A stretch of 38,185 nucleotides of DNA, from the sequence record DRR723986_2407. One strand, given 5' to 3'. Shown here piece after piece: positions 368 to 34,462 of the stretch (position 1 is the stretch's first letter; each line of letters begins with the position of its first letter). The notes beneath the pieces were generated by a model. That model was not told the DNA's origin. It was given only the letters and a program-made list of their open reading frames with translations, and did no database searches. A program made the translations under genes and the position numbers.

Positions 368-1351
368 TTAATTCAGCAGACTAAGATCGACTTGTTTGTC
401 GGCGTGGTAAGAGGAGCGCACCATCGGGCCGCTGGCAACGCTTTTAAAGCCGAGTTCTTCGGCGATGCGGCCGAATTCGTCGAATTCTTCGGGGGTAACA
501 AAGCGGTCCACGGGTAGGTGGTCACGGCTGGGCTGCAGGTACTGCCCGAGGGTGATCATGTCGATGTTGTGGGCGCGCATGTCTTTCATTACCTGAATCA
601 GCTCGTCGGCGGTTTCACCGAGGCCAAGCATCAGGCCGGACTTGGTAAGCACGTCGGGGCGGCGCTCTTTGTATTTTTTGAGCAGGTCGAGCGACCATTG
701 GTAGTCGGAACCCGGGCGGATTTTTTTGTAAAGGCTGGGTACCGATTCCAGATTGTGGTTGAACACGTCGGGCGCTTCTTGCTCGAGTATATCCAGCGCC
801 ACATCCATGCGGCCACGGAAGTCGGGTACGAGCACTTCAATGCGAATACCTTCGCTGCGCTGACGGGTTTCTCGAATGCAGTCGGCAAAGTGCTGGGCAC
901 CGCCGTCGCGCAGATCGTCGCGGTCCACCGAGGTGATAACCACGTACTTCAGCTGCATTTCGGCAATGGCTTCGGCCAGCTCGCGAGGCTCGTTTTCGTC
1001 CAGGGCATTGGGGCGGCCGTGGGCAACGTCGCAGAAAGGGCAGCGACGGGTACAGATTTCGCCCATGATCATAAAGGTGGCGGTGCCGCCACTGAAGCAC
1101 TCGCCCAGGTTGGGGCAAGCAGCCTCTTCACATACCGAGGCGAGTTTGTGTTTGCGCAGAATTTGCTTAATACGGCTGATTTCCGGGCTGGCGGGCAGCT
1201 TGGCGCGAATCCAGCTCGGTTTAACCGGCAGTTCGACCGAGGGAATGACCTTGACCGGAATACGGGCGACTTTTTCGGCACCGCGCAGTTTTTCGCCCTG
1301 CACCACTTTTTTGGCGGCGGGGCGTTTTTGGCCTTGGCTTGTCTCGCTCAT
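368..1351 (-). CDS. lipA: Lipoyl synthase (radical SAM)
   Basis: 327-aa ORF with [12 protein letters not shown], the radical-SAM motif CTRRCPFC and C-terminal RSSYHA. Confidence 0.98.
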
Positions 1352-1376
1352 TGCTATTACCTCTGCCGGGCTGTGA

Positions 1377-2048
1377 CTACAGCTCGGGTAGTTGATTGTC
1401 GTCCAGCACGGGGCTACTGCTGTAGCCCAGACGCGTGGCTAGTTGACGCGACAGGCTGTCCATCAGCCTTGCCATGTCTCTGTTTTGCTGCGGTGCCTGG
1501 CGAAGAATGTCGGTAACTTCCATACCGACATGGCCGCAGGGGTTGATGCGCTGAAACACCGACAAGTCCATATCGACATTCAGGCTCAAGCCGTGAAAGC
1601 TGCAACCGCGCCGCACACGCAGGCCCAGCTGGGCAATTTTAGCGCCGCTTTGCACATAAACGCCGGGGGCGTCGGCACGCGGGTGAGCGGCAATGGACAG
1701 CTCGGCAAGGGCTTCGACAATGCTTTGCTCAATGGCGGTAACCAGGTCGCGTACGCCAATACCGAGCCGCCGCAGATCAATGAGTACATAGCCCACCAAC
1801 TGGCCGGGGCCGTGGTAGGTAACCTGGCCGCCGCGATCCACTTGCACCACGGGAATGTCGCCGGGCATTAAAATATGTTCGGCCTTGCCCGCCTGCCCCT
1901 GAGTAAATACCGCCTGGTGTTCTAAAAACCACAGTTCATCGGGACTGTCGGCATCGCGCTGATCGGTATAGGCCTGCATGGCCTGCCACACTGGCTGGTA
2001 GTCTTGCAGCCCGGCCAAGCGGCGCTGATAGAGGATTTTCTCGCTCAC
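1377..2048 (-). CDS. lipB: Lipoyl(octanoyl) transferase
   Basis: Motifs [22 protein letters not shown] and INPCG; GTG start overlaps the ybeD stop (TAGTG). Confidence 0.97.
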
Positions 2049-2317
2049 TACATTACCATTTTGACGACGCCGGTCGCCTTCAGGTCTACGTGGATGCGCT
2101 CAAGCTGGTCTTTGCCGGTGGCCACAATGGTCACGGTGAGCGACATAAAGCGCCCTTCGCGGCTCAGCCGCTCGGTAACACAGCCCTCGGCCAGCGGCGC
2201 GGCGTGCTGTTCCATCACCGCCAGTACCTTGCCCCGCGCTTCCTCGTGATTGTCGGCAATCACCTTGATGGGATAGTCGCAGGGGAATTCAATTTTCGGT
2301 GGTTCTTGCTGCGTCAT
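2048..2317 (-). CDS. ybeD: YbeD/DUF493 family protein
   Basis: 89 aa with [12 protein letters not shown] and [11 protein letters not shown]; conserved position between dacA and lipB. Confidence 0.92.
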
Positions 2318-2327
2318 GCTTTTACCC

Positions 2328-3488
2328 TCACGACACCAGGCTCAGGAAGAACAGCACGATGCTGTCCCACAGGCGTTTGAAGATACTGCCCTCTTCCACC
2401 GACTCCAGTGCCACCAGCGGTACGCTCACTTCCAACTTGCCGTCCAAGCTCACTTGCAGCTCACCGTATTCACTGTCGGCAGCGATGGGCGCAGTAAGCA
2501 CCTCGTTAACAATTAACTGCGCATCCAGGTCGTCGGCCTTGCCGCGGGGAATGGTCAGGTAGACATCGTCTTGCACGCCCAGCGCCACATCGGCACTGCT
2601 GCCCTTCCACACCTTGGCCTTGGTCAGCTCAGTGCCGGCCGAATACAGGTGGTGGGTTTCAAAATACCGGAAGCCGTACGACAACAGTTTTTGCGTTTCG
2701 CGCTCGCGAACCCGCTCACTGGAAGCGCCCATTACCACGGAGATCAGGCGCATGCCCTCACGCTTGGCGGAGGTCACCAAGCAGTAACCCGCTTCATTGG
2801 TATGGCCGGTTTTCAGGCCGTCGACGCTGGGGTCCGTCCACAACAGGCCGTTGCGATTGTTCTGGCGAATATTGTTGTAGACAAACTCTTTTTCGCTGTA
2901 CAGCGCGTACTCATTGGGGAAGTCGATGATCGCCCGCGCCAGAATGGCCAGGTCGCGCGCCGAGGTGTAGTGCTCGGGGTGGGGCAAGCCGTGGGAGTTC
3001 ACAAAGTGGGTGTTTTCCAAACCCAGCATTTGCGCGTGCTGATTCATAATGCCGGCGAAGGCATCTTCGCTGCCGGCGAGGTATTCGGCCACGGCAACAC
3101 TGGCGTCGTTACCCGAGCTAATCACCACACCTTTATGCAGATCGCCAAGGGTGACTTGCTTGCCAACTTCGATCCACATCAGCGATGAGCCGGTGAAGAT
3201 GGGGTTTTGCGCCCAGGCATTTTTGCTGATGGTAACCAGGTCGCTGTTGCTCACCTGGCCTTGCTCCAGCTCGTATGACAGCACATAGCTGGTCATCAGT
3301 TTAGTGAGGCTGGCGGGCGGCAGGCGCTCATCGGCATTGTGTTCAATCAATACCTCTCCGCTGTCGGCGTCCATTAGCAAGTAGCCAGACGCGGAGATAG
3401 CCGGTGGCGCTGGCACCAGGCTTTGCTGGGCGGCAGCGTGACTGGCAAAGACCAGGGCGGAGACAATCAACAACACTAAGCGTTTCAA
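2328..3488 (-). CDS. dacA: D-alanyl-D-alanine carboxypeptidase (PBP5/6 family)
   Basis: Signal peptide; SxxK (PASLTK), SxN (SGNDA) and KTG motifs; TTG start. dacA versus dacC cannot be resolved. Confidence 0.93.
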   Translation of the reverse strand: MKRLVLLIVSALVFASHAAAQQSLVPAPPAISASGYLLMDADSGEVLIEHNADERLPPASLTKLMTSYVLSYELEQGQVSNSDLVTISKNAWAQNPIFTGSSLMWIEVGKQVTLGDLHKGVVISSGNDASVAVAEYLAGSEDAFAGIMNQHAQMLGLENTHFVNSHGLPHPEHYTSARDLAILARAIIDFPNEYALYSEKEFVYNNIRQNNRNGLLWTDPSVDGLKTGHTNEAGYCLVTSAKREGMRLISVVMGASSERVRERETQKLLSYGFRYFETHHLYSAGTELTKAKVWKGSSADVALGVQDDVYLTIPRGKADDLDAQLIVNEVLTAPIAADSEYGELQVSLDGKLEVSVPLVALESVEEGSIFKRLWDSIVLFFLSLVS

Positions 3489-4359: not shown

Positions 4360-5372
4360 TTCTGCGCGACTTCACTGCGGTAGGCCTCGGCCACTTTTTG
4401 GCTGAGCTGGTGCGCAGCCAATGCGTACATAGAGCTGTGGTTGTAGCGCGTAATCACGTAGAAGTTTTTCAGCCCTACCCAGTACTCGTCGCCCTTGGCG
4501 CCGTCGAACTTCATTGCCGTGGCCTTCATGCTTTCATCCAGCGCTTGATTGCTGCTGATGCCGCCCAGCTTCAACTCAGCAAGGGTTTTTACCGGCTTCA
4601 GGCCCGCGTTAAACAGGGTTTCATCTACTGGCTCGCTCAATACCGCTGGCGTAACCACGGTTTCACCTTTGCGCCAGCCGTGTTCGGCAAAGTAGTTGGC
4701 AACGCTGCCGATGGCATCAACGGGATTGTTCACGATGTCTGCCTGGCCGTCGTCGTCGAAGTCGACGGCGTAGGCGCGATAGCTGCTGGGAATAAACTGA
4801 CCATAACCCATTGCACCGGCGTAGCTGCCTTTGAAACTAAGCGGATCAAAGTCCTGCTCGCGTACCATTAACAGGTACTGCTCCAGCTGACCGAGGAAGA
4901 AGGTGCTGCGGCGGGGGAAGTCGAAACCCAGGGTCGCCAGCGCATCCACCACGCGGTAGCTGCCTTTATTGCGGCCGTAGCGGGTTTCCACACCGATAAT
5001 GCCGACGATCATTTCAGCGGGAACGCCAAATTCTTTTTCCGCCCGCGCCAGCGTGTCGGCGTGTTCCTGCCAGAACTTCACGCCCTGTTTGATGCGCGAG
5101 TCCTGAATAAATATTTTGCGGTAGCGCGCCCAGGTCATTACCGACTCGGCCGGCCGCTCCATGGCGTCGATAATGGACTGCTTCTTTTTTGCCTGCTGCA
5201 GAATATTGACCACCCAGTCGCGGTCAAAGCTGTGTTTTTCGACCACTTTGTCGACAAATTCAGCGGCCTTATCGTGTTGGCTGTAATCGGCCGACGCCAG
5301 CAGCGGCGTCGACATAGCCACGGCGGCAGCAAGGCAGCGCAGCGGCGAAGAAATCAATTTGCGTAAAATCAC
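4356..5372 (-). CDS. mltB: Lytic murein transglycosylase B
   Basis: GVETRYG, GSYAGAMGYGQFIPSSY and ITRYNHS motifs; exact start uncertain. Confidence 0.95.
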   Translation of the reverse strand: MILRKLISSPLRCLAAAVAMSTPLLASADYSQHDKAAEFVDKVVEKHSFDRDWVVNILQQAKKKQSIIDAMERPAESVMTWARYRKIFIQDSRIKQGVKFWQEHADTLARAEKEFGVPAEMIVGIIGVETRYGRNKGSYRVVDALATLGFDFPRRSTFFLGQLEQYLLMVREQDFDPLSFKGSYAGAMGYGQFIPSSYRAYAVDFDDDGQADIVNNPVDAIGSVANYFAEHGWRKGETVVTPAVLSEPVDETLFNAGLKPVKTLAELKLGGISSNQALDESMKATAMKFDGAKGDEYWVGLKNFYVITRYNHSSMYALAAHQLSQKVAEAYRSEVAQK

Positions 5373-11305: not shown

Positions 11306-11908
11306 CTATTGTGAAAGGCTCTCGAGCAGGTCGTGCAGGGCGTCTAGCCGGTGCAGCGGTTCGTCTATCTCCAGCAGCGGATACACATCCTCTGGACTGA
11401 GCGGCAGTAACTGGGCGAGTCGGTTGACCAGCTCACCGGTACCGCTCACCTCGGCACAGAAACCCATGCGCTGCACATGGGGGTGCTCCAACAACTGCGC
11501 CAACAAGGCAGACAACTCTTCAGCCTCTTCTGGCAGAGGAATATCCGCCTGTTCGCTGAGCCATTCAACGCGGCCGCGATTCAGCCCGGCGTCGTCGCGG
11601 TAGCTGTGCAGCAGGCGAAAACGCGGACCGCCCTCAACCACCACCGACAACAAACCGTCTTCGGTTTGATCCCAGTCCACCACCCGGGCCTGACAGCCCA
11701 CGGCGGCGATACGCGGCTCATCACCCTTACCGTCCACCTCACTGCCGGCGTGCAGGTGAACAATGCCGAAGTGGCCGTCGTCGCGCAGGGTATTGCGCAG
11801 CAAATCCAGATAGCGGCGCTCGAAGATACGCAACGCCATGCGGCCACCGGGAAATAACACACCACCCAGCGGAAACAGTGGGTAGTGGTCTTGTTGCTCA
11901 GCGTGCAT
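11306..11908 (-). CDS. Stand-alone LON peptidase substrate-binding (N) domain protein
   Basis: PLFPLGGVLFPG...LRIFERRYLDL signature; no AAA+ or protease domain; overlaps the 3' end of the MMPL gene. Confidence 0.88.
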   Translation of the reverse strand: MHAEQQDHYPLFPLGGVLFPGGRMALRIFERRYLDLLRNTLRDDGHFGIVHLHAGSEVDGKGDEPRIAAVGCQARVVDWDQTEDGLLSVVVEGGPRFRLLHSYRDDAGLNRGRVEWLSEQADIPLPEEAEELSALLAQLLEHPHVQRMGFCAEVSGTGELVNRLAQLLPLSPEDVYPLLEIDEPLHRLDALHDLLESLSQ

Positions 11909-16742: not shown

Positions 16743-17942
16743 TTAAAACGCCGCGCCCACCCAAAACCATAACTTATCGGTGTCTACGGCTAACTCATCG
16801 GCAGAATAGGCGGCATACTTCACTCCCACCGAATAGTGTTTGGCAAATTTTCGGCTGTACACCGCGTTTACTTCACTGCCGTAGGCATCGGCACCCGCGG
16901 CGTCATCGTCCGCGCGGTAGTCGTGATAAATCAGCGCCCACTTACCACCGGCAAGACTGCCGCCCAGCGAGGCGTAACGGTCAACTAAACCGCCGGCCGG
17001 TGTTTTGAGAAAAATATCGGCCCAGCCGTTGAATTTATGTAGCGTCGCTAGGGGCGTGGCAAAGCCGTAGCTGCCGTCGTCACTGCCCAGCACCTCGTAG
17101 CCAACTTTCGCGGTTAAACCCGCGGCGGCGACCCCGGCTTCAAGCAGCATATACTCCGCATCGGCATCGAGCAGCGGCGTGTCGGCCCGCTGACGAGCGA
17201 ACTCAGCGTGGTATAGCAGCTTTGCCTCAGCCAGAGGCTTCGCCCCCTTCACGCTCACACCACTGGTATCGAGACGGTCTTCGCCCGCCTCATTCAGTTC
17301 CAATAAATAGGAATAGGCCGTCACCGTACCCACCGCACTGTTGAAACGCAGGTTTAACAGGTGATCTTTGGCCTGTTTATCCGCCTGTTCGGCAAAGATG
17401 CCATTGCGCTGCCCCAGGTAGGCGTAGCTCAGCGACAATGCATCGTTGGCTTGATAGTTGAGTGAGATGCCATCAAAGGTCTGGCGATCCTGACGCCAAC
17501 CCACGTGCCCGACAAATCGATGGCCATCGTAGGTGATGACCTGTCGCCCTAATTTGGCCGTTAGCCTGCCGTGCTGGTAGCGCAGAAAGGCCTGATCCAG
17601 CTCGGTGGTTTCCGGGTCGGCAATCACCGAGTACTGCCCGGCTTTATACCCGGCTGGCGGCGCACTGAACTCGCCCTCTCCCGCGACGATGCGGCTATCC
17701 TCGAACTCCAGTTGCGCGGAAAAACCCTGATAGGCGGCGGTCTGATATCCCAGCCGGCTACGCAGGGTAAGGGCACTGGCATCATCCAGGGCATTGTCCT
17801 GACTCACCGCTTCATAACGCAGCCTAAAGTCACCGTACACCTTGCCGTTTGCCAACGCGTCGGCAAGGGAATCGGCAAATGAGGTGGCTGGCAAGGTTGC
17901 CGCCACGGCTCCTAGCAGTACGGCGTTTGCAATAACTCTCAT
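16743..17942 (-). CDS. Outer-membrane beta-barrel protein, alginate-export (AlgE-like) porin family
   Basis: ATG at 17942 with AGGAGAG RBS; signal peptide; FRLRYEAV, LDQAFL, GRQVI, GWRQDRQTFDG and LATLHKFNGWAD; amphipathic strands ending in Phe. Confidence 0.8.
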   Translation of the reverse strand: MRVIANAVLLGAVAATLPATSFADSLADALANGKVYGDFRLRYEAVSQDNALDDASALTLRSRLGYQTAAYQGFSAQLEFEDSRIVAGEGEFSAPPAGYKAGQYSVIADPETTELDQAFLRYQHGRLTAKLGRQVITYDGHRFVGHVGWRQDRQTFDGISLNYQANDALSLSYAYLGQRNGIFAEQADKQAKDHLLNLRFNSAVGTVTAYSYLLELNEAGEDRLDTSGVSVKGAKPLAEAKLLYHAEFARQRADTPLLDADAEYMLLEAGVAAAGLTAKVGYEVLGSDDGSYGFATPLATLHKFNGWADIFLKTPAGGLVDRYASLGGSLAGGKWALIYHDYRADDDAAGADAYGSEVNAVYSRKFAKHYSVGVKYAAYSADELAVDTDKLWFWVGAAF

Positions 17943-18089
17943 GCAGTTCTCTCCTACACTATTTTTTATCGGCCGACACAATGCCGGCAGCACCACGACC
18001 ATCAGGCCGAATTGAGAACGCCGTTTATCTCTAACACCTATTATTGTGGGCATTCGGTTTGGGCGACGTCGCCCATCGCAGGGATATTT

Positions 18090-18105
18090 AGCAAGCGGTA
18101 TGCCA
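18090..18105 (-). promoter_or_regulatory. Sigma54 (-24/-12) promoter of the porin gene
   Basis: Minus strand TGGCATACCGCTTGCT versus consensus TGGCAC-N5-TTGCW; correct GG-N10-GC spacing. Confidence 0.8.
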
Positions 18106-18144
18106 GCCGCGGAGAGATCAAGAAAATTAATTTATTTTTATAAT

Positions 18145-18157
18145 TTTCAATACGTTA
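18145..18157 (+). promoter_or_regulatory. Possible IHF site
   Basis: TTTCAATACGTTA, one mismatch to WATCAANNNNTTR, in an AT-rich tract between the sigma54 site and the NtrC-like boxes. Confidence 0.45.
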
Positions 18158-18250
18158 GCGAAAAATAACTCGCTCAAAAAACCTAAAAAGCCAGAGCCGC
18201 CCCAAAACACGACGACGCGCCTTTAGCGGCGCCTCATAACAAGACGACCG

Positions 18251-18312
18251 CGCCCAAAAATATTGCATTTAGAAGTGCGCAATCGGCAGTTTTGGCGCAC
18301 CACAATACTGCA
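18251..18312. promoter_or_regulatory. Two NtrC-like enhancer boxes
   Basis: CGCCCAAAAATATTGCA (18251-18267) and CGCACCACAATACTGCA (18296-18312) resemble TGCACCA-N3-TGGTGCA; about 150-200 bp upstream of the sigma54 site. Confidence 0.55.
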
Positions 18313-18343
18313 TGCCGCCACGCTGCCCAGCAAAAGCCCTCCG

Positions 18344-20062
18344 CTATCGGCTCAAGCTCCATAGCAGCGCCACGAGCAAGACAGCGCTGACGCCCTGCCA
18401 AAACCGCAGGGGGTTGCGGTGAACCAAGGGCTGAAATTCCCTGGCCTGATAGCTGGGGTTGGGGTGATGAAGATCGTGCATAAACTCTGCGATGTCGTGA
18501 TACCGCAGGTCGGGGTTAATACTCAACGCACGCTTTAGCGCGCGATCCATCCAATACGGAATATGCGGGTTGTAATCACTGGCAGAAACGTACTGCAGGC
18601 GCGAGTAATCACCAGCGCTGCGGCACTGCTCCAGCTTGCCCTCATAGGGCAGGGTTCCACTGAGCATTTCAAAGGCCACGACGGCCAGGGAGAACTGGTC
18701 AGCCCGCGCACTCGGCGGTTTGCGCAATACGTGCTCCGGCGCTGAATACTGCGCGGTACCCAGAATATGATCACGCTCTAACGGCACCGCGATCTCAGCT
18801 AAGCCAGCCACATGGCAGCTGCCAAAGTCGATAATGCGCACCCTGCCATCACCGTCCATCATTACATTGTCGGGCTTAATATCTTGGTGGAGGGTATCGC
18901 GCCGATGCATCGCCTGTAGGCCCTTGGCCAACTGACTGAGCACCGCCACTGCCTCACTCACGGCCGATCGGTCGCGCGCGGCCATCCACTGCGCCAGCGA
19001 CTGACCGGGAATATATTCAGCAAGGTAGTACAAACAGCTTGGACGCTGGGGCGGCTCAACCACCGACACAACAGCCGGATGCTCCAGTCGCTTGGCGATC
19101 CAGCTCTCCAGCACAAAGCGCTCGATGTAGGCCGGGTCATCCAAGTACAGCAATGACGGCGTTTTCATCACTAACTGGCGCTGGTTGCGAGTATCCACAA
19201 CCCGATACAACTGGCTGCGCGGGGTGGCGTGAAGCTCTTCTTCAATGCGCAAACCGTCGACCACCGCACCCGGCGGCAGCGGCGGCGGGAATGGCAAGGC
19301 ACTCAGCTGCTGATAAACATCGTCGGCATCGGCCAGCGGCAGCGCCTCTACACGCAGCAGCTGACAGCTGAGGTTATCCTTGCTGCCCGCGGCCAATGCA
19401 TCGTCGATCAACTGCTCGCAGGCGGGCTCCAGCGCACCGGACGCCTCGGCAAGGCACTGGCGAATCTGCTCGTCAGGCAGCACGTCGTGAATACCGTCGG
19501 TAGAAAGTAGAAACAGGTCCCCACAGCAGATATCGACCGAGCGATAGTCGACATCGAGATTGACGTCCAGCCCCATTGCCCGGGTCAAATACGCGTGCTC
19601 CGGAGAGATTCGCCGAGCGTGGTCGCGCGTCAGCTGTTCCAGCGCGCCGTCGCGAAGCCGGTATATGCGGCTATCCCCCACATGGAACAAGTGGGCGAGC
19701 TGGGACTTAAATACCGCCACACTCAGGGTAGACACATAGCCCTTTTCCGCCTGCGCATAGCCCTGACCCTGGGCAAACAGCCAGCGATTCAATGCATTTA
19801 ATACCTGTTGCGCGGAGCGCTTCACAGACCATGACTCGGGCGTTGAAAAGTAGTCATTCAGAAAGCCGGTAATGCAACTTTCCGCCGCCTCTTTGCCCGC
19901 CTCGGCCGCCGACACACCATCGGCAATAGCCGCGACGGCGCCCTTGGTCGTCAGCAGTGAACCCTCGGGCACTCGCGCGCCGAGACTGTCCTCATTAAAC
20001 GGCTTAAGCCCAGCGCTACTGCGCTGGGCTATGCTCAATTTCAGTCCACCATCCAGGTGCAA
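18344..20062 (-). CDS. Bifunctional PP2C-type phosphatase / Hanks-type Ser/Thr kinase with C-terminal membrane anchor
   Basis: PP2C motifs NEDS, ADGVS, HVGDSRIY, LTRAMG, STDGI and DNLS; kinase motifs VMKT, HQDIKPDN, DFG and APE; hydrophobic C-terminal helix; AAGGAG RBS before a TTG start. Confidence 0.92.
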   Translation of the reverse strand: MHLDGGLKLSIAQRSSAGLKPFNEDSLGARVPEGSLLTTKGAVAAIADGVSAAEAGKEAAESCITGFLNDYFSTPESWSVKRSAQQVLNALNRWLFAQGQGYAQAEKGYVSTLSVAVFKSQLAHLFHVGDSRIYRLRDGALEQLTRDHARRISPEHAYLTRAMGLDVNLDVDYRSVDICCGDLFLLSTDGIHDVLPDEQIRQCLAEASGALEPACEQLIDDALAAGSKDNLSCQLLRVEALPLADADDVYQQLSALPFPPPLPPGAVVDGLRIEEELHATPRSQLYRVVDTRNQRQLVMKTPSLLYLDDPAYIERFVLESWIAKRLEHPAVVSVVEPPQRPSCLYYLAEYIPGQSLAQWMAARDRSAVSEAVAVLSQLAKGLQAMHRRDTLHQDIKPDNVMMDGDGRVRIIDFGSCHVAGLAEIAVPLERDHILGTAQYSAPEHVLRKPPSARADQFSLAVVAFEMLSGTLPYEGKLEQCRSAGDYSRLQYVSASDYNPHIPYWMDRALKRALSINPDLRYHDIAEFMHDLHHPNPSYQAREFQPLVHRNPLRFWQGVSAVLLVALLWSLSR

Positions 20063-20094
20063 AACACCACTCCTTTTCGAGTTGAGGTTGCAGA

Positions 20095-21567
20095 CTAGCT
20101 CACTTCAATCAGCGCCACACTGCCATCGTCGTTGTATTCGGCAATGTGTCCCTGCGGCTCTTCCATAAATTGCACCGCAACAAACACAAAGGCAGCGCAA
20201 GCGGCGATCACCATAAAGAAGCTGGAAGCATCGACAAAACTGAGGACGGTCAGGAAGATAACCGCACCCACATTACCGTAAGCGCCGGTCATACCCGCAA
20301 TCTGTCCGGTCATACTGCGTTTGACCAACGGCACGATGGCAAACACCGCACCTTCGCCAGCCTGAACGAAGAAGGAGCAACACATGGTCGCCAATACTGC
20401 CAGCAGCAGCGGCCACGTAGACGTGATCTGACTGAGCAGCATATAGCCCACCGCCAAACCGCAGATCAAAATGCTCAGCGAGCGACGACGGCCAAACCGG
20501 TCAGACAGGTAGCCGCCACTGGGACGAGCAAGCAGGTTCATGAATGCAAAGCCGGAGGCCAACATACCCGCTTTTACGGCGGTCAGCTCAAAGGTCTCCA
20601 TAAAGAACAGCGGCAACATCGATACCACCGCGAGCTCAGAGCCAAAGGTAACCAGGTAGGCAACATTCAGAATAGCCACTTGCTTGAAGGGGTATTTCTG
20701 CATGGCGGGGATTTCTACATTGTTCAATACATCGTGGTTAACGCGCAGAATCTGGCTCACTTGCACAATGAACAACACCACCAACACACCGTAAAGCGAC
20801 ATTGCGGCAACGCCATTTAACATACCCAGATTCGACGGCGACAGCTTCCAGGTCAGTACTGCCAGCGCCAGGTACATGGGGATGCACATGGCAATGTAAA
20901 ACACCAAGTCGCGCTTGCTGGTTACCACCAAGCCGCCACTTTTCTTTGGCTTGAAGTAGGTAGAACCCTTGGGCGTGTTGCGCGCACGTGAGTAAAAGAA
21001 CACGCCGTAGATCATTGCCATCACACCCGTGCTGGCAATGGCGTAACGCCAGCCATCGTCGCCACCGAACATCAGCGCCAGGGTTGGCAGGGTCATCGCG
21101 GCTGCCGCCGAACCAAAGTTACCCCAGCCACCGTAAACGCCCTCGGCCAAGCCGACCTGGCGCGCGGGAAACCACTCACCAACAAGACGAATACCAATCA
21201 CAAAGCCCGCGCCAATAAAACCCATTAAAAAACGCAGCAGCGCGATGGTTTCATAGCTGTCGGCAAACGCAAACGCGATACACATGGCACCGCCACTAAC
21301 GAGGAGTGCCGAGTAGATAATGCGCGGACCGTAGCGATCCACCAGCATGCCAACCACCACCCGGGCGGGAATCGTCAGCGCCACATTGAGAATCATCAGG
21401 GCTTTCACTTGCTGCCCGGTAAGATCGAAGGCCTCTTTAATAGAGGCCAGCATCGGTGCGTGGCTAAACCACACGACAAAAGTCAGGAAGAAGGCAAACC
21501 AGCTCAGATGCAGCAAGCGGATTTTATCCTGCTTGAGATCGAGCAAATTTAATGTAGAGGACGACAT
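20095..21567 (-). CDS. narK: NarK/NasA/NRT2 (NNP family) MFS nitrate/nitrite transporter
   Basis: ATG at 21567 with GGAG RBS; nitrate-signature motifs GGWGNFG and [10 protein letters not shown]; conserved Arg in PARVVVG and LARPSGG; multiple TM helices. Confidence 0.92.
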
Positions 21568-21607
21568 AGTAGCTCCATTCAGCCAACGAGGAATTTGCTT
21601 GCTGCTG

Positions 21608-21623
21608 AGCAAACGCCGTGCCA
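21608..21623 (-). promoter_or_regulatory. Sigma54 promoter of the narK-kinase/phosphatase operon
   Basis: Minus strand TGGCACGGCGTTTGCT, a full consensus match. Confidence 0.85.
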
Positions 21624-21642
21624 AACATCAATACCAGCCCAC

Positions 21643-21655
21643 TAAGCAATTGATA
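21643..21655 (-). promoter_or_regulatory. IHF binding site
   Basis: Minus strand TATCAATTGCTTA is a perfect WATCAANNNNTTR, 20 bp upstream of the -24 element. Confidence 0.65.
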
Positions 21656-21763
21656 TTGTTAACAATAAATATGACTTAGCGACGACTTAACGCGACCAGG
21701 CAAGTGCCAGCCACCACCGCCAACCGCCTGCGGCCTGAATTTTCGCCCCCCGATGAAGCAGCG

Positions 21764-21814
21764 CGCCCCAGAAACAATCAGCCGCGCCACACCACAAAGC
21801 ACCAAAATGCGCCC
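21764..21814. promoter_or_regulatory. Degenerate NtrC-like boxes between the divergent promoters
   Basis: CGCCCCAGAAACAATCA and AGCACCAAAATGCGCCC; only the left half-sites match well. Confidence 0.35.
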
Positions 21815-21847
21815 CAAGCTCGACCACAAAAATACAAAAACCATATA

Positions 21848-21860
21848 AATCAAACACATA
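21848..21860 (+). promoter_or_regulatory. Possible IHF site
   Basis: AATCAAACACATA, one mismatch to consensus, just upstream of the nirB sigma54 site. Confidence 0.5.
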
Positions 21861-21877
21861 ATGAACACAAAATTCAC

Positions 21878-21893
21878 TGGCACGTCTTTTGCT
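21878..21893 (+). promoter_or_regulatory. Sigma54 promoter of nirBD
   Basis: TGGCACGTCTTTTGCT, a full consensus match about 90 bp before the nirB ATG. Confidence 0.85.
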
Positions 21894-21979
21894 TAATACC
21901 TGTTACACGCCCCAGGGCACATTAATAATGCAGCACTCCCCGGTGCTGCCAATGGTAGAAAGAAGCAAAGGACGTCACT

Positions 21980-24529
21980 ATGAGCCATAAACAGCGCTTG
22001 CTTGTTGTGGGCAACGGCCCCGTTGGACATCAATTCCTAGAGTCAATCGTCGAAAGTGGCTGCGCGACGGATTACCAGATCACCGTAATCGGCGAAGAGC
22101 CCCGCCCCGCCTACGACCGCGTACATCTGACGGCCTGGTTTGAAACGCGACAAGCCGACGCGCTAAACATGGTTGCCGATGGCTTCTACGCGACAAACAA
22201 TATCGACGTTAGATGCGGTGAAAAAGTTGTCGCCATTGATCGCGATGCAAAAACCGCAACAACGGATTCAGGGCGCCACTACGACTATGACCAGCTGGTG
22301 CTGGCGACCGGTTCCTACCCCTTTGTTCCCCCTGTTCCCGGCCACGAGCGCGAAAACTGCTTTGTTTACCGCACCATCGAAGACCTTGAAGCGATCACCG
22401 CGGCGGCAAAAAATGCCTCTGTGGGCGCCGTGGTGGGCGGCGGCCTACTCGGCCTGGAGGCCGCTAAAGCCATTAAGGACCTGGGCCTGAAAACCCATGT
22501 CATTGAATTCGCGCCGCGCCTGATGGCGGTGCAAGTGGACGACGGTGGCGGCGCACTGCTGAGACGCAAGATCGAAGACCTTGGCGTTGAAGTGCACACC
22601 CAGAAAAACACGCAAAACATCGGCGACGGCGAGCACTGCGTGCACAAGCTGTCCTTCGCTGACGGCGCAGAACTGGAAACCGACATTCTGGTTTTCTCTG
22701 CAGGTATTCGCCCGCAAGATGCACTGGCTCGCCAGTGTGAACTGGAGATCGGCGAACGCGGCGGCATCGCCATTAACAATTACTGCCAGACCTCTGACCC
22801 CGCCATCTATGCCATCGGCGAATGCGCGCTGTGGAACCAACGCATCTTTGGCCTGATTGCGCCGGGCAATGAAATGGCCCGCGTCGCCGCTGCACATATC
22901 CTTGGCAACGGTGACGACAAGCAGTTCACCGGCGCAGACATGAGCACCAAGCTCAAGCTAATGGGCGTCGACGTTGCCTCGATTGGAGACGCCCACGGCA
23001 ACACCCCCGGTGCCAAGTCCTATACCTTTATCGATGAACAAGCCGAGATCTATAAAAAGATAGTGGTGAGCGAAAGCGGCAAGCACTTGCTCGGCGCGGT
23101 ATTGGTGGGCGATGCCGACGACTACGGCAATTTGCTGCAATTTGCGCTCAATGGCATCGAGCTTCCCGAACACCCGGAAGCGATGATTCTCCCCAATATA
23201 GACGGCAGTGCGAGCGTTGGCCTCGGGGTGGATGCCCTCCCCGACAGCGCGCAAATTTGCAGCTGTAACAACGTCAGCAAGGGCGATATCTGCGCGGCGG
23301 TGCAGGACGGCGCACTGACCGTTGGCGATGTAAAAAGCTGCACCAAGGCCGCCAGCACCTGCGGCGGCTGTACCGCCCTGGTGGGCCAGGTGGTCAACGC
23401 TGAGCTCACTAAACTTGGTGTTGAAGTGAATACCGACCTCTGTGAACACTTCCCCTACACTCGCCAGGAGCTGTTCCACTTAATCCGCGTAGGCGGTATT
23501 AAATCCTTTGACGAGTTATTGGAGAAGCACGGTTCCGGTAAAGGCTGCGCCATCTGTAAACCGACGGCAGCATCCATCTTCGCCTCCTGCTGGAACGAGT
23601 ACATTCTGGAAAATCAGCACGCCGGCCTGCAAGACACCAATGACCGCTTCCTCGCGAATATGCAGAACAACGGCACCTTCTCTGTTGTGCCCCGCATGGC
23701 AGGCGGTGAGGTCACTCCGGACGGCTTGATCACCGTGGGTAGCATCGCCAAAAAATACAAGCTTTACACCAAAATCACCGGCGGCCAGCGGGTGGATTTA
23801 TTCGGCGCCACCCTCGACCAACTTCCGGCGATATGGAAGGAACTGATCGATGCTGGTTTTGAAAGTGGCCACGCCTACGGCAAGTCGCTGCGCACGGTGA
23901 AGTCCTGCGTGGGCTCCAGCTGGTGTCGCTACGGCGTGCAAGACAGCGTTGGTCAGGCCATCGACCTGGAGAACCGCTACAAAGGCCTGCGCTCACCCCA
24001 CAAGATAAAAATGGCCGTGTCTGGCTGCACCCGCGAGTGCGCCGAAGCGCAGAGCAAGGACGTTGGCGTGATCGCCACGGAAAAAGGCTGGAACCTCTAC
24101 GTGTGCGGTAACGGTGGCATGAAACCCCGCCACGCCGACCTCTTTGCCTCCGACATCGATACCGAAACCCTGGTGAAATACGTCGACCGCTTGTTGATGT
24201 TCTACGTGCGCACCGCCGACCGCCTGCAACGCACCTCAGTGTGGATGGAAAACCTTGAGGGCGGTTTGGACTATCTGCGTCAGGTCATCATCGACGACTC
24301 ACTGGGTATCTGCGACGAACTGGAGCGCGACATGCAAAGCGTGGTCGACAGCTACCAATGCGAGTGGAAGACCACCATCGAAGACGAGCAAAAACTCAAA
24401 CAATTCCGCTCCTTCGTGAATGCCGATGACGGCGACAAAGACATTGTTTTCGTGGAAGAGCGCGGTCAAATCAGGCCCGCCAACGAAGAAGAAAAACAAC
24501 TCAACAACAACTTAATTGCTGTTGCCTGA
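21980..24529 (+). CDS. nirB: NAD(P)H-dependent nitrite reductase, large subunit
   Basis: FAD/NAD-binding motifs (VVGNG, GGGLLGLE); BFD-like Cys motifs (CSCNN, CGGC); siroheme/[4Fe-4S] ligands CVGSSWC and SGCTREC. Confidence 0.97.
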   Translation: MSHKQRLLVVGNGPVGHQFLESIVESGCATDYQITVIGEEPRPAYDRVHLTAWFETRQADALNMVADGFYATNNIDVRCGEKVVAIDRDAKTATTDSGRHYDYDQLVLATGSYPFVPPVPGHERENCFVYRTIEDLEAITAAAKNASVGAVVGGGLLGLEAAKAIKDLGLKTHVIEFAPRLMAVQVDDGGGALLRRKIEDLGVEVHTQKNTQNIGDGEHCVHKLSFADGAELETDILVFSAGIRPQDALARQCELEIGERGGIAINNYCQTSDPAIYAIGECALWNQRIFGLIAPGNEMARVAAAHILGNGDDKQFTGADMSTKLKLMGVDVASIGDAHGNTPGAKSYTFIDEQAEIYKKIVVSESGKHLLGAVLVGDADDYGNLLQFALNGIELPEHPEAMILPNIDGSASVGLGVDALPDSAQICSCNNVSKGDICAAVQDGALTVGDVKSCTKAASTCGGCTALVGQVVNAELTKLGVEVNTDLCEHFPYTRQELFHLIRVGGIKSFDELLEKHGSGKGCAICKPTAASIFASCWNEYILENQHAGLQDTNDRFLANMQNNGTFSVVPRMAGGEVTPDGLITVGSIAKKYKLYTKITGGQRVDLFGATLDQLPAIWKELIDAGFESGHAYGKSLRTVKSCVGSSWCRYGVQDSVGQAIDLENRYKGLRSPHKIKMAVSGCTRECAEAQSKDVGVIATEKGWNLYVCGNGGMKPRHADLFASDIDTETLVKYVDRLLMFYVRTADRLQRTSVWMENLEGGLDYLRQVIIDDSLGICDELERDMQSVVDSYQCEWKTTIEDEQKLKQFRSFVNADDGDKDIVFVEERGQIRPANEEEKQLNNNLIAVA

Positions 24530-24597
24530 AGGTCTCACTGACAGGAGCCACACAGAGCAACACAGCGAGAAACCTCGCACAAGTATGGAGATTAGCT

Positions 24598-24915
24598 ATG
24601 AGCTGGACCACCGTCTGCACACTCGACGACATTTTACCCAATGCTGGCGCCGCCGCCTTAGTCGGCGACACGCAGCTTGCTGTCTTTCGCGTCGATGACC
24701 GCATCTTCGCACTCGACAACCACTGCCCCTTCAGCCGCGCCAATGTGCTGGCGCGGGGAATTGTTGGCAGCGTCGGCGACACGCTAGTGGTTGCCTCACC
24801 ACTGTACAAACAGCATTTCAGTCTGGAGGCAGGGCACTGCCTTGAAGACGACAGTATCTCTGTGCGTCGCTTCCCCGCGCGCAACGAGAACGGCCTGGTG
24901 CAGGTCCAACTATAA
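24598..24915 (+). CDS. nirD: Nitrite reductase, small subunit
   Basis: 105 aa with NHCPFSRANVLARGIVG and VASPLYKQHF; GGAG RBS. Confidence 0.95.
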   Translation: MSWTTVCTLDDILPNAGAAALVGDTQLAVFRVDDRIFALDNHCPFSRANVLARGIVGSVGDTLVVASPLYKQHFSLEAGHCLEDDSISVRRFPARNENGLVQVQL

Positions 24916-31804: not shown

Positions 31805-34462
31805 ATGTTAAAAAAATTGTTGCTTAGCGTCAGTGTTTTACTGCTACTCATCATCATTGGCATCACCGCCATTGTTATTCAGCCACAACTTCTGCAGGGC
31901 GCAATCGCGACGGGCGGCCAGCGTTTTGCCGGCCTCGACATCACCTTCGAGTCGCTCAGTTCCCACCGCAGCCCACTGCGGCTGGAGCTGAAGGGACTGG
32001 AGCTTCGCAATCCCGACTGGCCCGAGCCAACACTGTTACGCCTAGACTCCTTGTCGCTGAAGCTTATCGCCTCCCCCTTTGACGACGGCGCCTTCTGGTC
32101 GCTGCACAGTGAAGGGCTCACCGTTAATCTGGAGCACAACCGCGAGGGCGAACTCAACTGGCTGACCAGCAAACTGCGTGGCAACGGCGAAACCCCTCCG
32201 CCAGATACTGAGCCCTCTGCCCCTGCTCCCGTGCAATTACCGGGCGATTTTAATTTTCAGGAAATTGTCCTGCTAGACAGCCATATTCATATTCTGCGCG
32301 CCGACGGCAAGCGCTATCACATCGACCTGCCCGAGGTGAGAGGTGAGCGCAGTGAAACAGCGAACGGTCACCTCTCATTGGAGCTGGCCTATGCCCAGCA
32401 CCATTTTTTGGTGAGCGGGGATATCGTGTTGTTTGATCCCAGTGCCGGTGTGCTGGACTATCAACTCGCCATCGAACATGAAGATGCCCAACTTAAAAGC
32501 GAGGGCCGTCTATCGCTAAGCCCGGACCTATCCGGCAGCCGCATAGATCTATCCCTCGCCTTGCAGCGCCTGGAGGCACTGGCAACCATGGCAGGTTTGG
32601 AGCAAGCACCTGCGCTACCCGAAAGCCGCCTGGCCACAACCTTAGTCATCGACAATGGCTACCAGCTCAGCGACACCACCCTGGCCCTTGGCGACAACAC
32701 CCTGTCTGGCACACTGACCATCGCCACTGATTTTTCGCAGGTCGACGCCACGCTGAGCAGCCCCGCATTGAATATCGATGCACTGCAGGAAATTTTCGCG
32801 CCCGCCCCGCAGGAGTCAACACAGGCCGATGCGACAGCAGAACCAGCTGAGACCGCGATGGACTGGCAGTGGTTGAGCAAACCAGAAGTGAAAGCAACAC
32901 TCGCGATCGAGCGACTGCTCGCCAGCGGCTGGCAACTGGATGCACTGAAGGTCACCGCCACAACGGGCGAGCAGCTGTCCGCGGACTTTAGTATTGCCAC
33001 GGTAAGTGAGGCGGCCAGCCAACGCCAGCTAAACGACGTAACGGGGGAATTGCGCCTGACGCCACTGGCACCGCAGAGCGGAGGCGCTGATGCCCGCTTA
33101 GAACTGGCACTAAGCGAGCGCGGCGTAAACATCGATATAGAAGGTGACGTTAACCTCAACGGCAAGGCTGGCAACGCGCTAAAGATCCGCGCGCAAGCGC
33201 CACAAAGCGCACACCTTTGGGCACTGGCACAGCTGCCCTGGCAAGAAGCCGGCGCGCTGGAACTAACCGGGCAGTTCGCCAGTGAGGCGCAAGGCTACAC
33301 GGTAAACAGTTCCGCCTCACTGGGTGAGCAACAGGCCGATGTAACGCTGGAATACAACACGCCTGAGGCCTTGGAGTACGGCCACCTAGACGGCCAATTA
33401 ACCCTTAAAAACCTCTCGATGGCCTTCACTTCGCCCGCTAATGAAAGCGCTTCTACGCAAACCAGCACGCCGCGTCCGCGCAGCAAAAAATTGCTGAGTA
33501 AAGACCCCATCGCCTTTGATGCTCTGCATAAATTCGAAGGCCAACTAAACATTGATCTTCAAGATGTCGACACCGGCTACACCTACATTAAGCGAGCCTC
33601 TCTCGCGCCCAGCGTGAAGAAAGGTGTGCTGACTCTCAGCGACAGTCGCATTCTCACCAACGGCGGTGAAGCCCAGCTTTCCGCGCGGTTGGACGCCAAT
33701 GGCGAGCGCCCGCAACTGCGCAGTGAAATCCGTGTTGACGGTAGCGACTACGGCAAGCTCGGCTTAGAAAAAGCGGCGGGCATCCGCGGTGGTACTGGCG
33801 ATATACGCCTTAATCTGCGCGCCAGCGGAAACAGCCCTGCTGACCTGGCCGCCTCCCTCAACGGCCAGGTCGATATCAAAATTACCGACCTGGAGGCCAA
33901 GGGCAATGCGCTGAACCTGATCGGTAGCGACGTGCTCACTGAAACGTTTAACAAGCTCAATCCCTTTCGGGAAAAACGCAGCACCACACAGATCGAGTGT
34001 CTGGCCGTGCACTTTAAAGGCAATGACGGCAAATTCATTAGCAACGACGGCATCGCTCTGGAAACCGAGGCCAGTAAGATTATCGGTACAGGCCATATCG
34101 ATTTTGCCAACGAAGAGTTGCGGTTCGGTATTTCGCCCATCGCTCGCAAGGGCGTTGGCATTAATGTTGGCGCCGCCGCCGGCTTGGTGCGACTGGGAGG
34201 CAGCTTCAGCAAACCGCGCGTGGAGGCCGACCCCGGTGGTATGTTTACCTCGGGTCTCTCTACTGGTGCAGCCATTTATACAGGCGGTCTGTCGCTGGTC
34301 GCGCAGGGTTTAATGAAGCGCGCGCTGTATTCGGGGAGTGCCTGTGATGGCGCCTTGGAAGAAATTCCCAGCGCTGACGAACTACCTCCGGAGTTACTGC
34401 AACCTGCTGACAACCCCGCCGCACCGGCCAGCACAGAACAAGTGACTCAGCCCAAGACCTAA
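31805..34462 (+). CDS. AsmA-family membrane-bridging protein
   Basis: 885 aa; N-terminal TM anchor, beta-rich body with LNW motif, AsmA-like C terminus (GTGHIDFANEEL...VRLGGSFSKPRV). Confidence 0.8.
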   Translation: MLKKLLLSVSVLLLLIIIGITAIVIQPQLLQGAIATGGQRFAGLDITFESLSSHRSPLRLELKGLELRNPDWPEPTLLRLDSLSLKLIASPFDDGAFWSLHSEGLTVNLEHNREGELNWLTSKLRGNGETPPPDTEPSAPAPVQLPGDFNFQEIVLLDSHIHILRADGKRYHIDLPEVRGERSETANGHLSLELAYAQHHFLVSGDIVLFDPSAGVLDYQLAIEHEDAQLKSEGRLSLSPDLSGSRIDLSLALQRLEALATMAGLEQAPALPESRLATTLVIDNGYQLSDTTLALGDNTLSGTLTIATDFSQVDATLSSPALNIDALQEIFAPAPQESTQADATAEPAETAMDWQWLSKPEVKATLAIERLLASGWQLDALKVTATTGEQLSADFSIATVSEAASQRQLNDVTGELRLTPLAPQSGGADARLELALSERGVNIDIEGDVNLNGKAGNALKIRAQAPQSAHLWALAQLPWQEAGALELTGQFASEAQGYTVNSSASLGEQQADVTLEYNTPEALEYGHLDGQLTLKNLSMAFTSPANESASTQTSTPRPRSKKLLSKDPIAFDALHKFEGQLNIDLQDVDTGYTYIKRASLAPSVKKGVLTLSDSRILTNGGEAQLSARLDANGERPQLRSEIRVDGSDYGKLGLEKAAGIRGGTGDIRLNLRASGNSPADLAASLNGQVDIKITDLEAKGNALNLIGSDVLTETFNKLNPFREKRSTTQIECLAVHFKGNDGKFISNDGIALETEASKIIGTGHIDFANEELRFGISPIARKGVGINVGAAAGLVRLGGSFSKPRVEADPGGMFTSGLSTGAAIYTGGLSLVAQGLMKRALYSGSACDGALEEIPSADELPPELLQPADNPAAPASTEQVTQPKT

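Follow-up and report, generated by a model that had tools for sequence, protein, structure and literature searches.

A tail-anchored PP2C-kinase fusion encoded behind nitrate and nitrite transporter genes: a candidate for phospho-control of uptake

The minus strand of sequence record DRR723986_2407, a 38,185-nucleotide (nt) stretch of DNA referred to here as the window, carries a nitrate transporter gene, narK (21567..20095), followed by a gene (18344..20062) whose product joins a PP2C phosphatase to a Hanks-type Ser/Thr kinase in one polypeptide with a predicted C-terminal membrane anchor. A functional link between this fusion and a nitrate/nitrite transporter is strongly supported: among 88 copies of the fusion with evaluable gene context, 80 lie directly downstream of a same-strand nitrate/nitrite transporter gene. 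Our proposal for the nature of this link, which is tentative and held at somewhat less than an even chance, is that the fusion both adds phosphate to and removes it from a cytoplasmic Ser/Thr motif on its transporter, tuning uptake. The fusion is a further member of a known, annotated family, and the idea of transporter phosphorylation was already in print in 2013. New here are a single partner switch to FNT channels and a family-wide P-loop signature in the fusion, a 14-helix NarK subfamily with an invariant disordered loop and a conserved tail, and paired sigma-54 promoters with metatranscriptome support.

Gene context across the fusion family

Gene context was read for 92 fusion copies at 90 loci, comprising the 30 best, the weakest full-length and 40 mid-ranked matches of a 400-genome search, with some 30 other full-length matches lying outside this sample; locus L045, from genome G142, is counted in the tally. 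Four copies are cut by a contig end. A close NarK (at least 45% identity) is encoded directly upstream and on the same strand in 64 cases, a more distant NarK-like transporter of the major facilitator superfamily in eight, and an FNT formate/nitrite-type channel in another eight, all of which match PF01226 (8/8). One copy has a divergent FNT gene, and seven have no transporter gene upstream, two of these (L057 and L058) having a convergent NarK-like gene within 3 kb. Within the distant NarK-like set, L102 holds a partial NarK of 42% identity, and the other members scanned (5/5) have TIGR00886 as their best match at 250-314 bits. Outside the tally, L109 and L110 carry FNT-fusion and NarK-fusion pairs.

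The initial annotation had proposed co-occurrence with NNP transporters as a check on its reading, and such co-occurrence is found both in the position of 80/88 fusion copies behind a transporter gene and at the level of genomes. The NarK subfamily represented in the window (E <= 1e-60) occurs in 88/400 genomes, and 87 of these 88, all except G095, also have the fusion. When 60 loci with 3-kb flanks were compared, a transporter gene was present in 53/60 and a NirB-like gene in 27/60. The pairing of fusion and transporter persists across fusions that are as little as 31-37% identical and across three transporter types.

A FastTree tree of 93 fusion proteins, rooted at the midpoint, places the nine FNT-paired fusions in one clade (support 99) nested among NarK-paired fusions; when the import of nitrogen oxyanions passed to a transporter of unrelated fold, the enzyme therefore went with it. 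Fourteen fusions of the distant group fall on the opposite side of the midpoint root, and the tree calls for only two switches of partner type. NarK-paired fusions have 156 positions with a conservation of 85% or more; FNT-paired fusions keep 129 of these unchanged, vary at 22 and have five fixed differently (G56S, G265R, G323A, K396R, and E465Q). Residue 396 of the catalytic loop (18875-18877) is Arg in 9/9 FNT-paired fusions and Lys in 66/66 NarK-paired and 14/14 distant fusions; among 123 family representatives it is Lys in 66 and Arg in 48.

The family itself is large: after clustering at 90% identity, the relatives number more than 7,297, and many of them carry the NCBI name "bifunctional protein-serine/threonine kinase/phosphatase". 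The nearest named relatives come from Zhongshania and Spongiibacter; full-length identity to so-named proteins of Zhongshania, Spongiibacter, Cellvibrio, and Halioglobus is 54-66%, and a contig of Spongiibacter marinus carries a fusion copy that is 99% identical. A match to the fusion (E <= 1e-30) was found in 119/400 genomes of an even sample of the class, in which one genome was unscored and the unpublished genomes G040, G142, and G309 were included, although no conclusion depends on these three; among high-quality genomes the count is 108/348. A locus search with the fusion protein alone yielded 5 true relatives among 15 loci.

Several loci depart from the common arrangement. At L047, a reverse-transcriptase gene (RVT_1, group II intron-like; 1059-2813, plus strand) stands where relatives have a NarK-like gene. 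L049, from a genome of the distant clade, has a separate protein kinase gene (427-1815, plus strand; Pkinase, 80 bits) immediately upstream of its fusion gene, and in one genome (L098) the cyanate lyase gene cynS (4809-5252, minus strand) separates the fusion from the FNT channel gene. A copy in another genome (G109:C3:1883089-1884793) is spread over two adjacent frames one base apart, corresponding to residues 7-214 and 215-571, and is either frameshifted or split.

The fusion protein and its NarK partner

The product of the fusion gene has the features of its family, with an N-terminal PP2C domain followed by a Hanks kinase in one polypeptide of ~570 amino acids, a tail anchor, and a transporter gene upstream. 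The PP2C (PPM) phosphatase domain occupies residues ~8-240 (19343..20041, minus strand) and is identified by Pfam, NCBIfam and Foldseek matches and by its conserved Asp residues; the Ser/Thr kinase domain, whose P-loop lacks glycine and whose catalytic loop reads HQD, occupies residues ~271-535 (18458..19252, minus strand). Pfam detects PP2C_2 over residues 38-211 (57 bits) and Pkinase over 283-521 (116 bits), and NCBIfam a Stp1-type PP2C over 23-235 and a PknB-type kinase over 283-534, with NCBIfam scores far under the equivalog cut-offs (165 vs 450 and 116 vs 230). An AlphaFold2 model built with 33 orthologues reached a predicted local distance difference test score (pLDDT) of 89.8 and a predicted template modelling score (pTM) of 0.83. 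When this model was searched with Foldseek, the kinase domain of PknB was matched with a template modelling score (TM-score, on target) of up to 0.86, and the phosphatases PppA, tPphA, and PstP with scores of 0.81-0.86.

All PP2C Asp motifs and kinase K/D/DFG/APE residues that the initial annotation had listed were found in the sequence. The phosphatase carries D25, D48-G49, D130, D189-G190, and D229-N230 and combines the PPM fold with its conserved acidic metal ligands; the kinase carries K300, E319, H392-Q393-D394, N399, D412-F-G414, and A441-P-E443, that is, the catalytic Lys, the alpha-C Glu, the loop Asp and Asn, DFG and APE in a kinase fold, with Gln in place of the HRD Arg. Conservation was assessed in 123 full-length proteins, each representing a cluster at 50% identity, and in a second set of 89 members grouped by gene context. 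All named residues are retained in 113-122 of the 123 representatives, and the catalytic Asp, Lys and Asn residues in 114-122; the acidic residues D25, D48, D130, D189, and D229 are kept in 117-122 (D25, D48, D189, and D229 in 117-119) and the kinase residues K300, E319, D394, N399, and D412 in 114-121. In the context-grouped set, K300, D394, N399, D412, D25, D48, D189, and D229 are each present in 89/89.

The P-loop of the kinase reads L-H-A-T-P-R-S-Q-L-Y, and the canonical G-x-G-x-x-G is absent both here and family-wide. The atypical loop reported in the initial annotation is thus real, and its replacement sequence is a signature shared across the 123 representatives (R282 in 107/123, S283 in 103/123, Y286 in 105/123; no conserved Gly). 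The non-RD catalytic loop, HQD, also described there, is present in this fusion but is not a trait of the family, residue 393 being Gln in 51/123 representatives and Arg in 49/123, and Arg in 14/14 members of the distant clade. The activation segment has few Ser/Thr besides the structural T436.

Toward the C-terminus, a juxtamembrane motif, P-L-x-(E/H)-R-N-P-x-x-F-W, and a tail-anchor helix occupy residues 545-572 (18347..18430, minus strand), as judged from conservation and the modelled helix. W555 is found in 119/123 representatives and in 89/89 context-grouped members, and P551 in 104/123; the fusion in the window has His at the Glu position of the motif. Motif and anchor are alike in all three partner classes. 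The predicted helix spans residues 551-571 and ends one residue short of the end of the protein at 572; therefore both catalytic domains are predicted to be cytoplasmic with no periplasmic domain, in agreement with the C-terminal transmembrane helix and the missing extracellular sensor that had been described at the outset.

The NarK partner is identified as a member of the NarK/NNP family by TIGR00886 (322.1 bits; cut-off 311.7). Its AlphaFold2 model (pLDDT 82.5) has 14 long helices in place of the canonical 12, and E. coli NarK aligns only with residues 19-163 and 297-423. The extra pair of helices (218-242 and 252-276) lies within residues 218-276 (20740..20916, minus strand), between the six-helix halves, and has no counterpart in E. 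coli NarK. Just ahead of this pair, the cytoplasmic loop after helix 6 (residues 195-217; 20917..20985, minus strand) includes the sequence [14 protein letters not shown] and is a candidate for phosphate acceptance or for docking; in this loop T198 is conserved in 58/59, S202 in 57/59, and T203 in 59/59 paired NarKs; T198, P199, G201, T203, Y204, and F205 are invariant in the NarK alignment (A1). Residues 199-209 have a pLDDT below 50 and are predicted to be disordered despite the invariance of the 198-208 stretch. The central loop pointed out in the initial annotation is accordingly present and strongly conserved, while the N-terminal SSST named alongside it is present but unconserved.

A further conserved element is the C-terminal tail of NarK (residues 466-490; 20098..20172, minus strand), a predicted beta hairpin with strands at 473-478 and 484-489 (pLDDT about 65). 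Position 483 is Thr in 53/59 and Ser in 6/59 sequences, and P471, E477, D481, G482, and I487 are invariant. The other partner classes have conserved ends of their own: the distant NarK type has a conserved C-terminal R-W-R-T-T-W-G, and the FNT partners share an N-terminal M-S-Y-L-x-P-S-E-F.

Layout and transcription of the narK locus

narK and the fusion gene are encoded on the minus strand, narK running from an ATG at 21567 to a TAG at 20097-20095 (490 amino acids) and the fusion from a TTG start at 20062 (572 amino acids). The spacer between them (20063..20094, minus strand) measures exactly the 32 nt given in the initial annotation and includes an AAGGAG sequence at 20075-20070, 7 nt ahead of the TTG start. 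A longer narK open reading frame of 509 amino acids, with a TTG start at 21624, was rejected because this start precedes the promoter motif described below and homologs align from the ATG at 21567.

The motif in question is a sigma-54 type sequence, TGGCAC-N5-TTGCT, at 21608..21623 (minus strand), ~40 nt ahead of the narK ATG; a second sigma-54 type motif, also a pattern match, precedes nirB at 21878..21893 (plus strand). The pattern TGGCAC-N5-TTGCW has exactly these two matches in the 38-kb window vs 0.09 expected by chance. RNA evidence comes from contigs, 95-99% alike, of four marine metatranscriptome runs (X1, X2, X3, and X6), each of which provides a contig over the narK-fusion junction (X1 record 3, 18838-21582; X2 record 10, 19403-21571; X3 record 13, 18444-21569; X6 record 18, 18446-20612). 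Contigs on the narK side end at 21569-21582, with adapter sequence after the end in two runs; 21599-21872 is uncovered in X1, X2, and X6, and contigs on the nirB side start at 21913-21920. The coverage gap and the adapter-tagged ends together give a weak hint of a transcript start. Such contigs cannot prove one transcript, and DNA may contaminate RNA libraries; a narK-fusion transcript from the sigma-54 promoter, a promoter type of nitrogen limitation, has moderate support. The co-transcription originally claimed is supported by the 32-nt gap, the junction-bridging RNA contigs and a spacer in which no terminator-like site was predicted.

On the other side of the promoter region, nirB (21980-24529) and nirD (24598-24915) encode an assimilatory nitrite reductase divergent from narK (21980..24915, plus strand; NirB 1360 bits, NirD 129.8 bits). 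The nirB leader contains a 7-bp GC-rich hairpin at 21930-21949, between the sigma-54 motif and the nirB start, and the narK leader is only ~30 nt long, with no hairpin and no room for an antiterminator. In the nearest genome (G001), a NasS/NasT-like pair scoring under model cut-offs is encoded elsewhere (L116, with an ANTAR match). As the hairpin is confined to the nirB leader and a NasS/NasT-like pair is at hand, nitrate-dependent antitermination may act on nirBD only. No nitrate reductase gene lies in the narK-nirBD cluster of the window; in the nearest genome the only NasC/NasA-like molybdoenzyme candidate (L113, 1198-3450, plus strand; 502 bits vs NasC, below the cut-off) is unlinked to narK-nirBD and adjoins an OmpA-like gene.

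Downstream of the fusion by 290 nt lies a gene for a porin-like protein of 436 amino acids (16743..18053, minus strand), with a Pfam Alginate_exp match of 42 bits and a weak Opr porin match. Porin-like homologs of 36-41% identity adjoin narK-fusion pairs in L048, L050, and L084, and one RNA contig (X6 record 17, 17900-18460) covers the end of the fusion gene into the porin-like side. The gene is possibly part of the narK-fusion transcription unit, and its product may form a channel in the outer membrane and accompany nitrate gene clusters. Housekeeping genes follow beyond it. At the thresholds applied, NCBIfam gave no match for two further open reading frames of the window, of 885 amino acids (31805-34462, plus strand) and 200 amino acids (11306-11908, minus strand).

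Possible targets and relation to known systems

We propose that the fusion would be a bifunctional Ser/Thr kinase and PP2C phosphatase facing the cytoplasm, with a C-terminal tail that fixes it to the inner membrane. It would be made on the same sigma-54-driven transcript as NarK, and the anchor would keep it in the plane of the membrane beside the transporter, where it could write and erase phosphate on a cytoplasmic transporter motif; in NarK the best candidates would be the disordered loop with T198, S202, and T203 and the C-terminal hairpin with Ser/Thr 483. Uptake would then be tuned after synthesis of the transporter, the balance between the two opposed activities presumably being set by a cytoplasmic cue, such as nitrogen status, the concentration of nitrite or nitrate, or the binding of a partner. 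A more daring version, which we regard as improbable, has the fusion as a direct gate-keeper whose arginine-bearing, glycine-less ATP loop might read a cytoplasmic anion or a nitrogen-status cue and switch the structurally different 14-helix NarK, canonical NarK and FNT channel on and off through short conserved disordered motifs; here the analogy is with WNK kinases, which sense chloride. The ammonium shut-off of nitrate uptake suggested in the initial annotation gained no support, the sigma-54 promoter motif being the only regulatory signal found, and stands as a reasonable physiological guess. The NarK phospho-switch put forward there is borne out as far as the functional link to a transporter goes (80/88 copies downstream, one divergent), but nothing identifies NarK as the substrate.

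A number of observations weigh against transporter phosphorylation. The analysis is purely computational and contains nothing that demonstrates a phosphorylated NarK, and 7/88 fusion copies lack an upstream transporter gene. No Ser/Thr motif is common to the three partner classes (in NarK the motifs are G-S-T-Y-F in the loop and D-G-T-V in the tail), and the T-P-x-G part of the NarK loop may be general to the NarK/NRT2 family. Only three unpaired NarK copies are informative (L106, L107, and L108), the open reading frame taken for L107 being on the wrong strand, and these are too few for a comparison with paired NarKs; one of the paralogs, L106, retains the C-terminal tail. With only five of the 156 positions refixed, nothing points to a docking surface remodelled for the new partner fold, and no class-specific tail-anchor residues that would mark partner docking were found, the juxtamembrane motif being the same in all classes. 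The partner-switch result cuts both ways and is counted here against a large fold-specific docking interface. A complex prediction for NarK 1-490 with fusion residues 250-572, made with 33-row alignments for each and without controls, gave a best score of 0.28 against a mark of 0.32 and bears on binding in neither direction.

It is possible, if doubtful, that the target is instead a soluble part of the nitrogen-assimilation machinery, such as NirBD, nitrate reductase, NasS/NasT or PII, with tether and operon providing co-synthesis and proximity to the site of nitrate entry. This would accord with the NirB-like gene found within 3 kb at 27/60 loci, with the divergent nirB here and with three transporter classes that have no shared motif, and the near-constancy of the enzyme through the change from NarK to FNT (5/156 positions) fits an unchanged substrate. 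Yet the transporter gene is the most constant neighbor (53/60 vs 27/60 for NirB), and a tail anchor and juxtamembrane motif kept throughout, with W555 in 89/89, would be hard to account for if the substrate were entirely soluble. The PP2C domain does resemble tPphA, among others, and a PP2C phosphatase acting on cyanobacterial PII appears among the titles in the reference list of a 2005 Pseudomonas report (PMC1262709); the likeness to tPphA is nonetheless a generic PP2C match, with PppA and PstP scoring alike.

Self-directed signaling, in which the fusion autophosphorylates in response to nitrate/nitrite flux or concentration at the membrane, is reset by its own PP2C domain and relays the signal to expression or metabolism with the transporter as sensor, appears unlikely. 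In its favor, the protein has no sensor domain besides its two catalytic ones, a single kind of enzyme is used with all three transporter types, and the ~30-nt narK leader has no room for an antiterminator, in contrast to the hairpin-bearing nirB leader; by analogy with WNK kinases, R282 of the P-loop (107/123) could conceivably bind an anion. Against it, the loci have no conserved downstream partner, the activation segment has few Ser/Thr besides the structural T436, and the NasS/NasT-like pair in the nearest genome could already sense nitrate. Loss of the glycine loop could alternatively have left the kinase as a pseudokinase or scaffold, with PP2C alone catalytic and reversing phosphorylation by another kinase. 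The family-wide absence of G-x-G-x-x-G and the Gln at the HRD Arg position speak for this, but pseudokinases usually lose catalytic Lys, Glu, Asp, and Asn residues, and because these are retained here (K300, E319, D394, N399, and D412 in 114-121/123; K300, D394, N399, and D412 in 89/89) we consider a pseudokinase very unlikely; the substitute P-loop is itself conserved. Scarcely credible is the view that adjacency is a passenger of operon inheritance with no tie to nitrate transport: close genomes do share the arrangement by descent, and the seven of 88 copies without an upstream transporter fit this view, but the pairing holds at 31-37% fusion identity and across three transporter types, one of unrelated fold.

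By taking up nitrate, heterotrophic bacteria of sea and soil contribute a major flux to the nitrogen cycle, and we know of no molecular basis for its post-transcriptional control in proteobacteria. The fusion family, found in 119/400 genomes, is present in marine metatranscriptomes and tied to three kinds of nitrate/nitrite transporter. If the fusion gates uptake through transporter phosphorylation, it would constitute a widespread, simple switch and a bacterial model for the phospho-control of plant nitrate transporters, for which the present analysis adds testable candidate sites (T198/S202/T203 and Ser/Thr 483). Were the gate-keeper version true, it would further give bacteria an equivalent of the NRT2.1 phospho-switch of plants and explain how proteobacteria rapidly adjust nitrate uptake at the post-translational level.

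The statement in the initial annotation that similar fusions lie beside nitrate genes in pseudomonads is corroborated by passages of two papers (PMC1262709; PMC3596284). The PP2C-kinase architecture was first reported, for Pseudomonas, in passages of the 2005 paper (PMC1262709), and passages of the 2013 genome paper on Pseudomonas sp. UW4 give the cluster nasST-nasA-ppkB-nasDEC-cobA and point to phosphorylation of the transporter by analogy with Arabidopsis and Hansenula, whose nitrate transporters are phosphorylated by kinases (PMC3596284). PA1782 features only as an entry in lists of predicted kinases in the relevant passages of two further papers (PMC8560001; PMC11197903), and the passages found of a 2023 study of nitrate-assimilation control in P. 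putida do not mention the fusion (PMC10783516). No experimental study of the fusion family was found in a literature search that left most subscription journals and supplements uncovered.

The NCBI-named family, with which the Pseudomonas proteins ppkB and PA1782 are provisionally grouped, shares domain order and length with the fusion described here, and ppkB likewise lies directly behind a transporter gene, nasA, in the cluster as printed (PMC3596284). The clade paired with NarKs of canonical length is RD in 14/14 members and 31-37% identical to this fusion. From the NCBI-named family at large the fusion in the window differs in its 14-helix NarK partner and its HQD loop. The PknB/PstP and Stk1/Stp1 pairs have the same kinase and PP2C folds, according to Foldseek, and the same opposed write/erase logic; however, they consist of two separate proteins, the kinase having a membrane helix in the middle of the protein and, beyond it, an extracellular PASTA sensor, whereas the fusion is a single tail-anchored polypeptide with no outside domain and a replaced glycine loop. 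AceK and HPr kinase/phosphorylase are single-protein kinase/phosphatases of bacterial metabolism in which one polypeptide both attaches and removes the phosphate of its dedicated target, as may be the case here, but they are soluble and have a shared active site or unrelated folds, in contrast to the two eukaryote-like domains and membrane anchor of the fusion.

Phospho-regulation of eukaryotic nitrate transporters includes a C-terminal serine of Arabidopsis NRT2.1 with a PP2C phosphatase, T101 of NRT1.1 with CIPK23, and Ynt1 of Hansenula. The link of T101 to a CIPK is given in PMC7348705. NRT2 belongs to the NNP family, as does NarK (TIGR00886), and the Ser/Thr conserved in the C-terminal tail of NarK and the PP2C enzyme at its side might correspond to the elements of the plant switch, the acceptor sites being likened by analogy alone. 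The eukaryotic enzymes differ in being separate soluble kinases and phosphatases encoded apart from the transporter, whereas in the system described here both activities would reside in one membrane-anchored protein encoded directly behind it.

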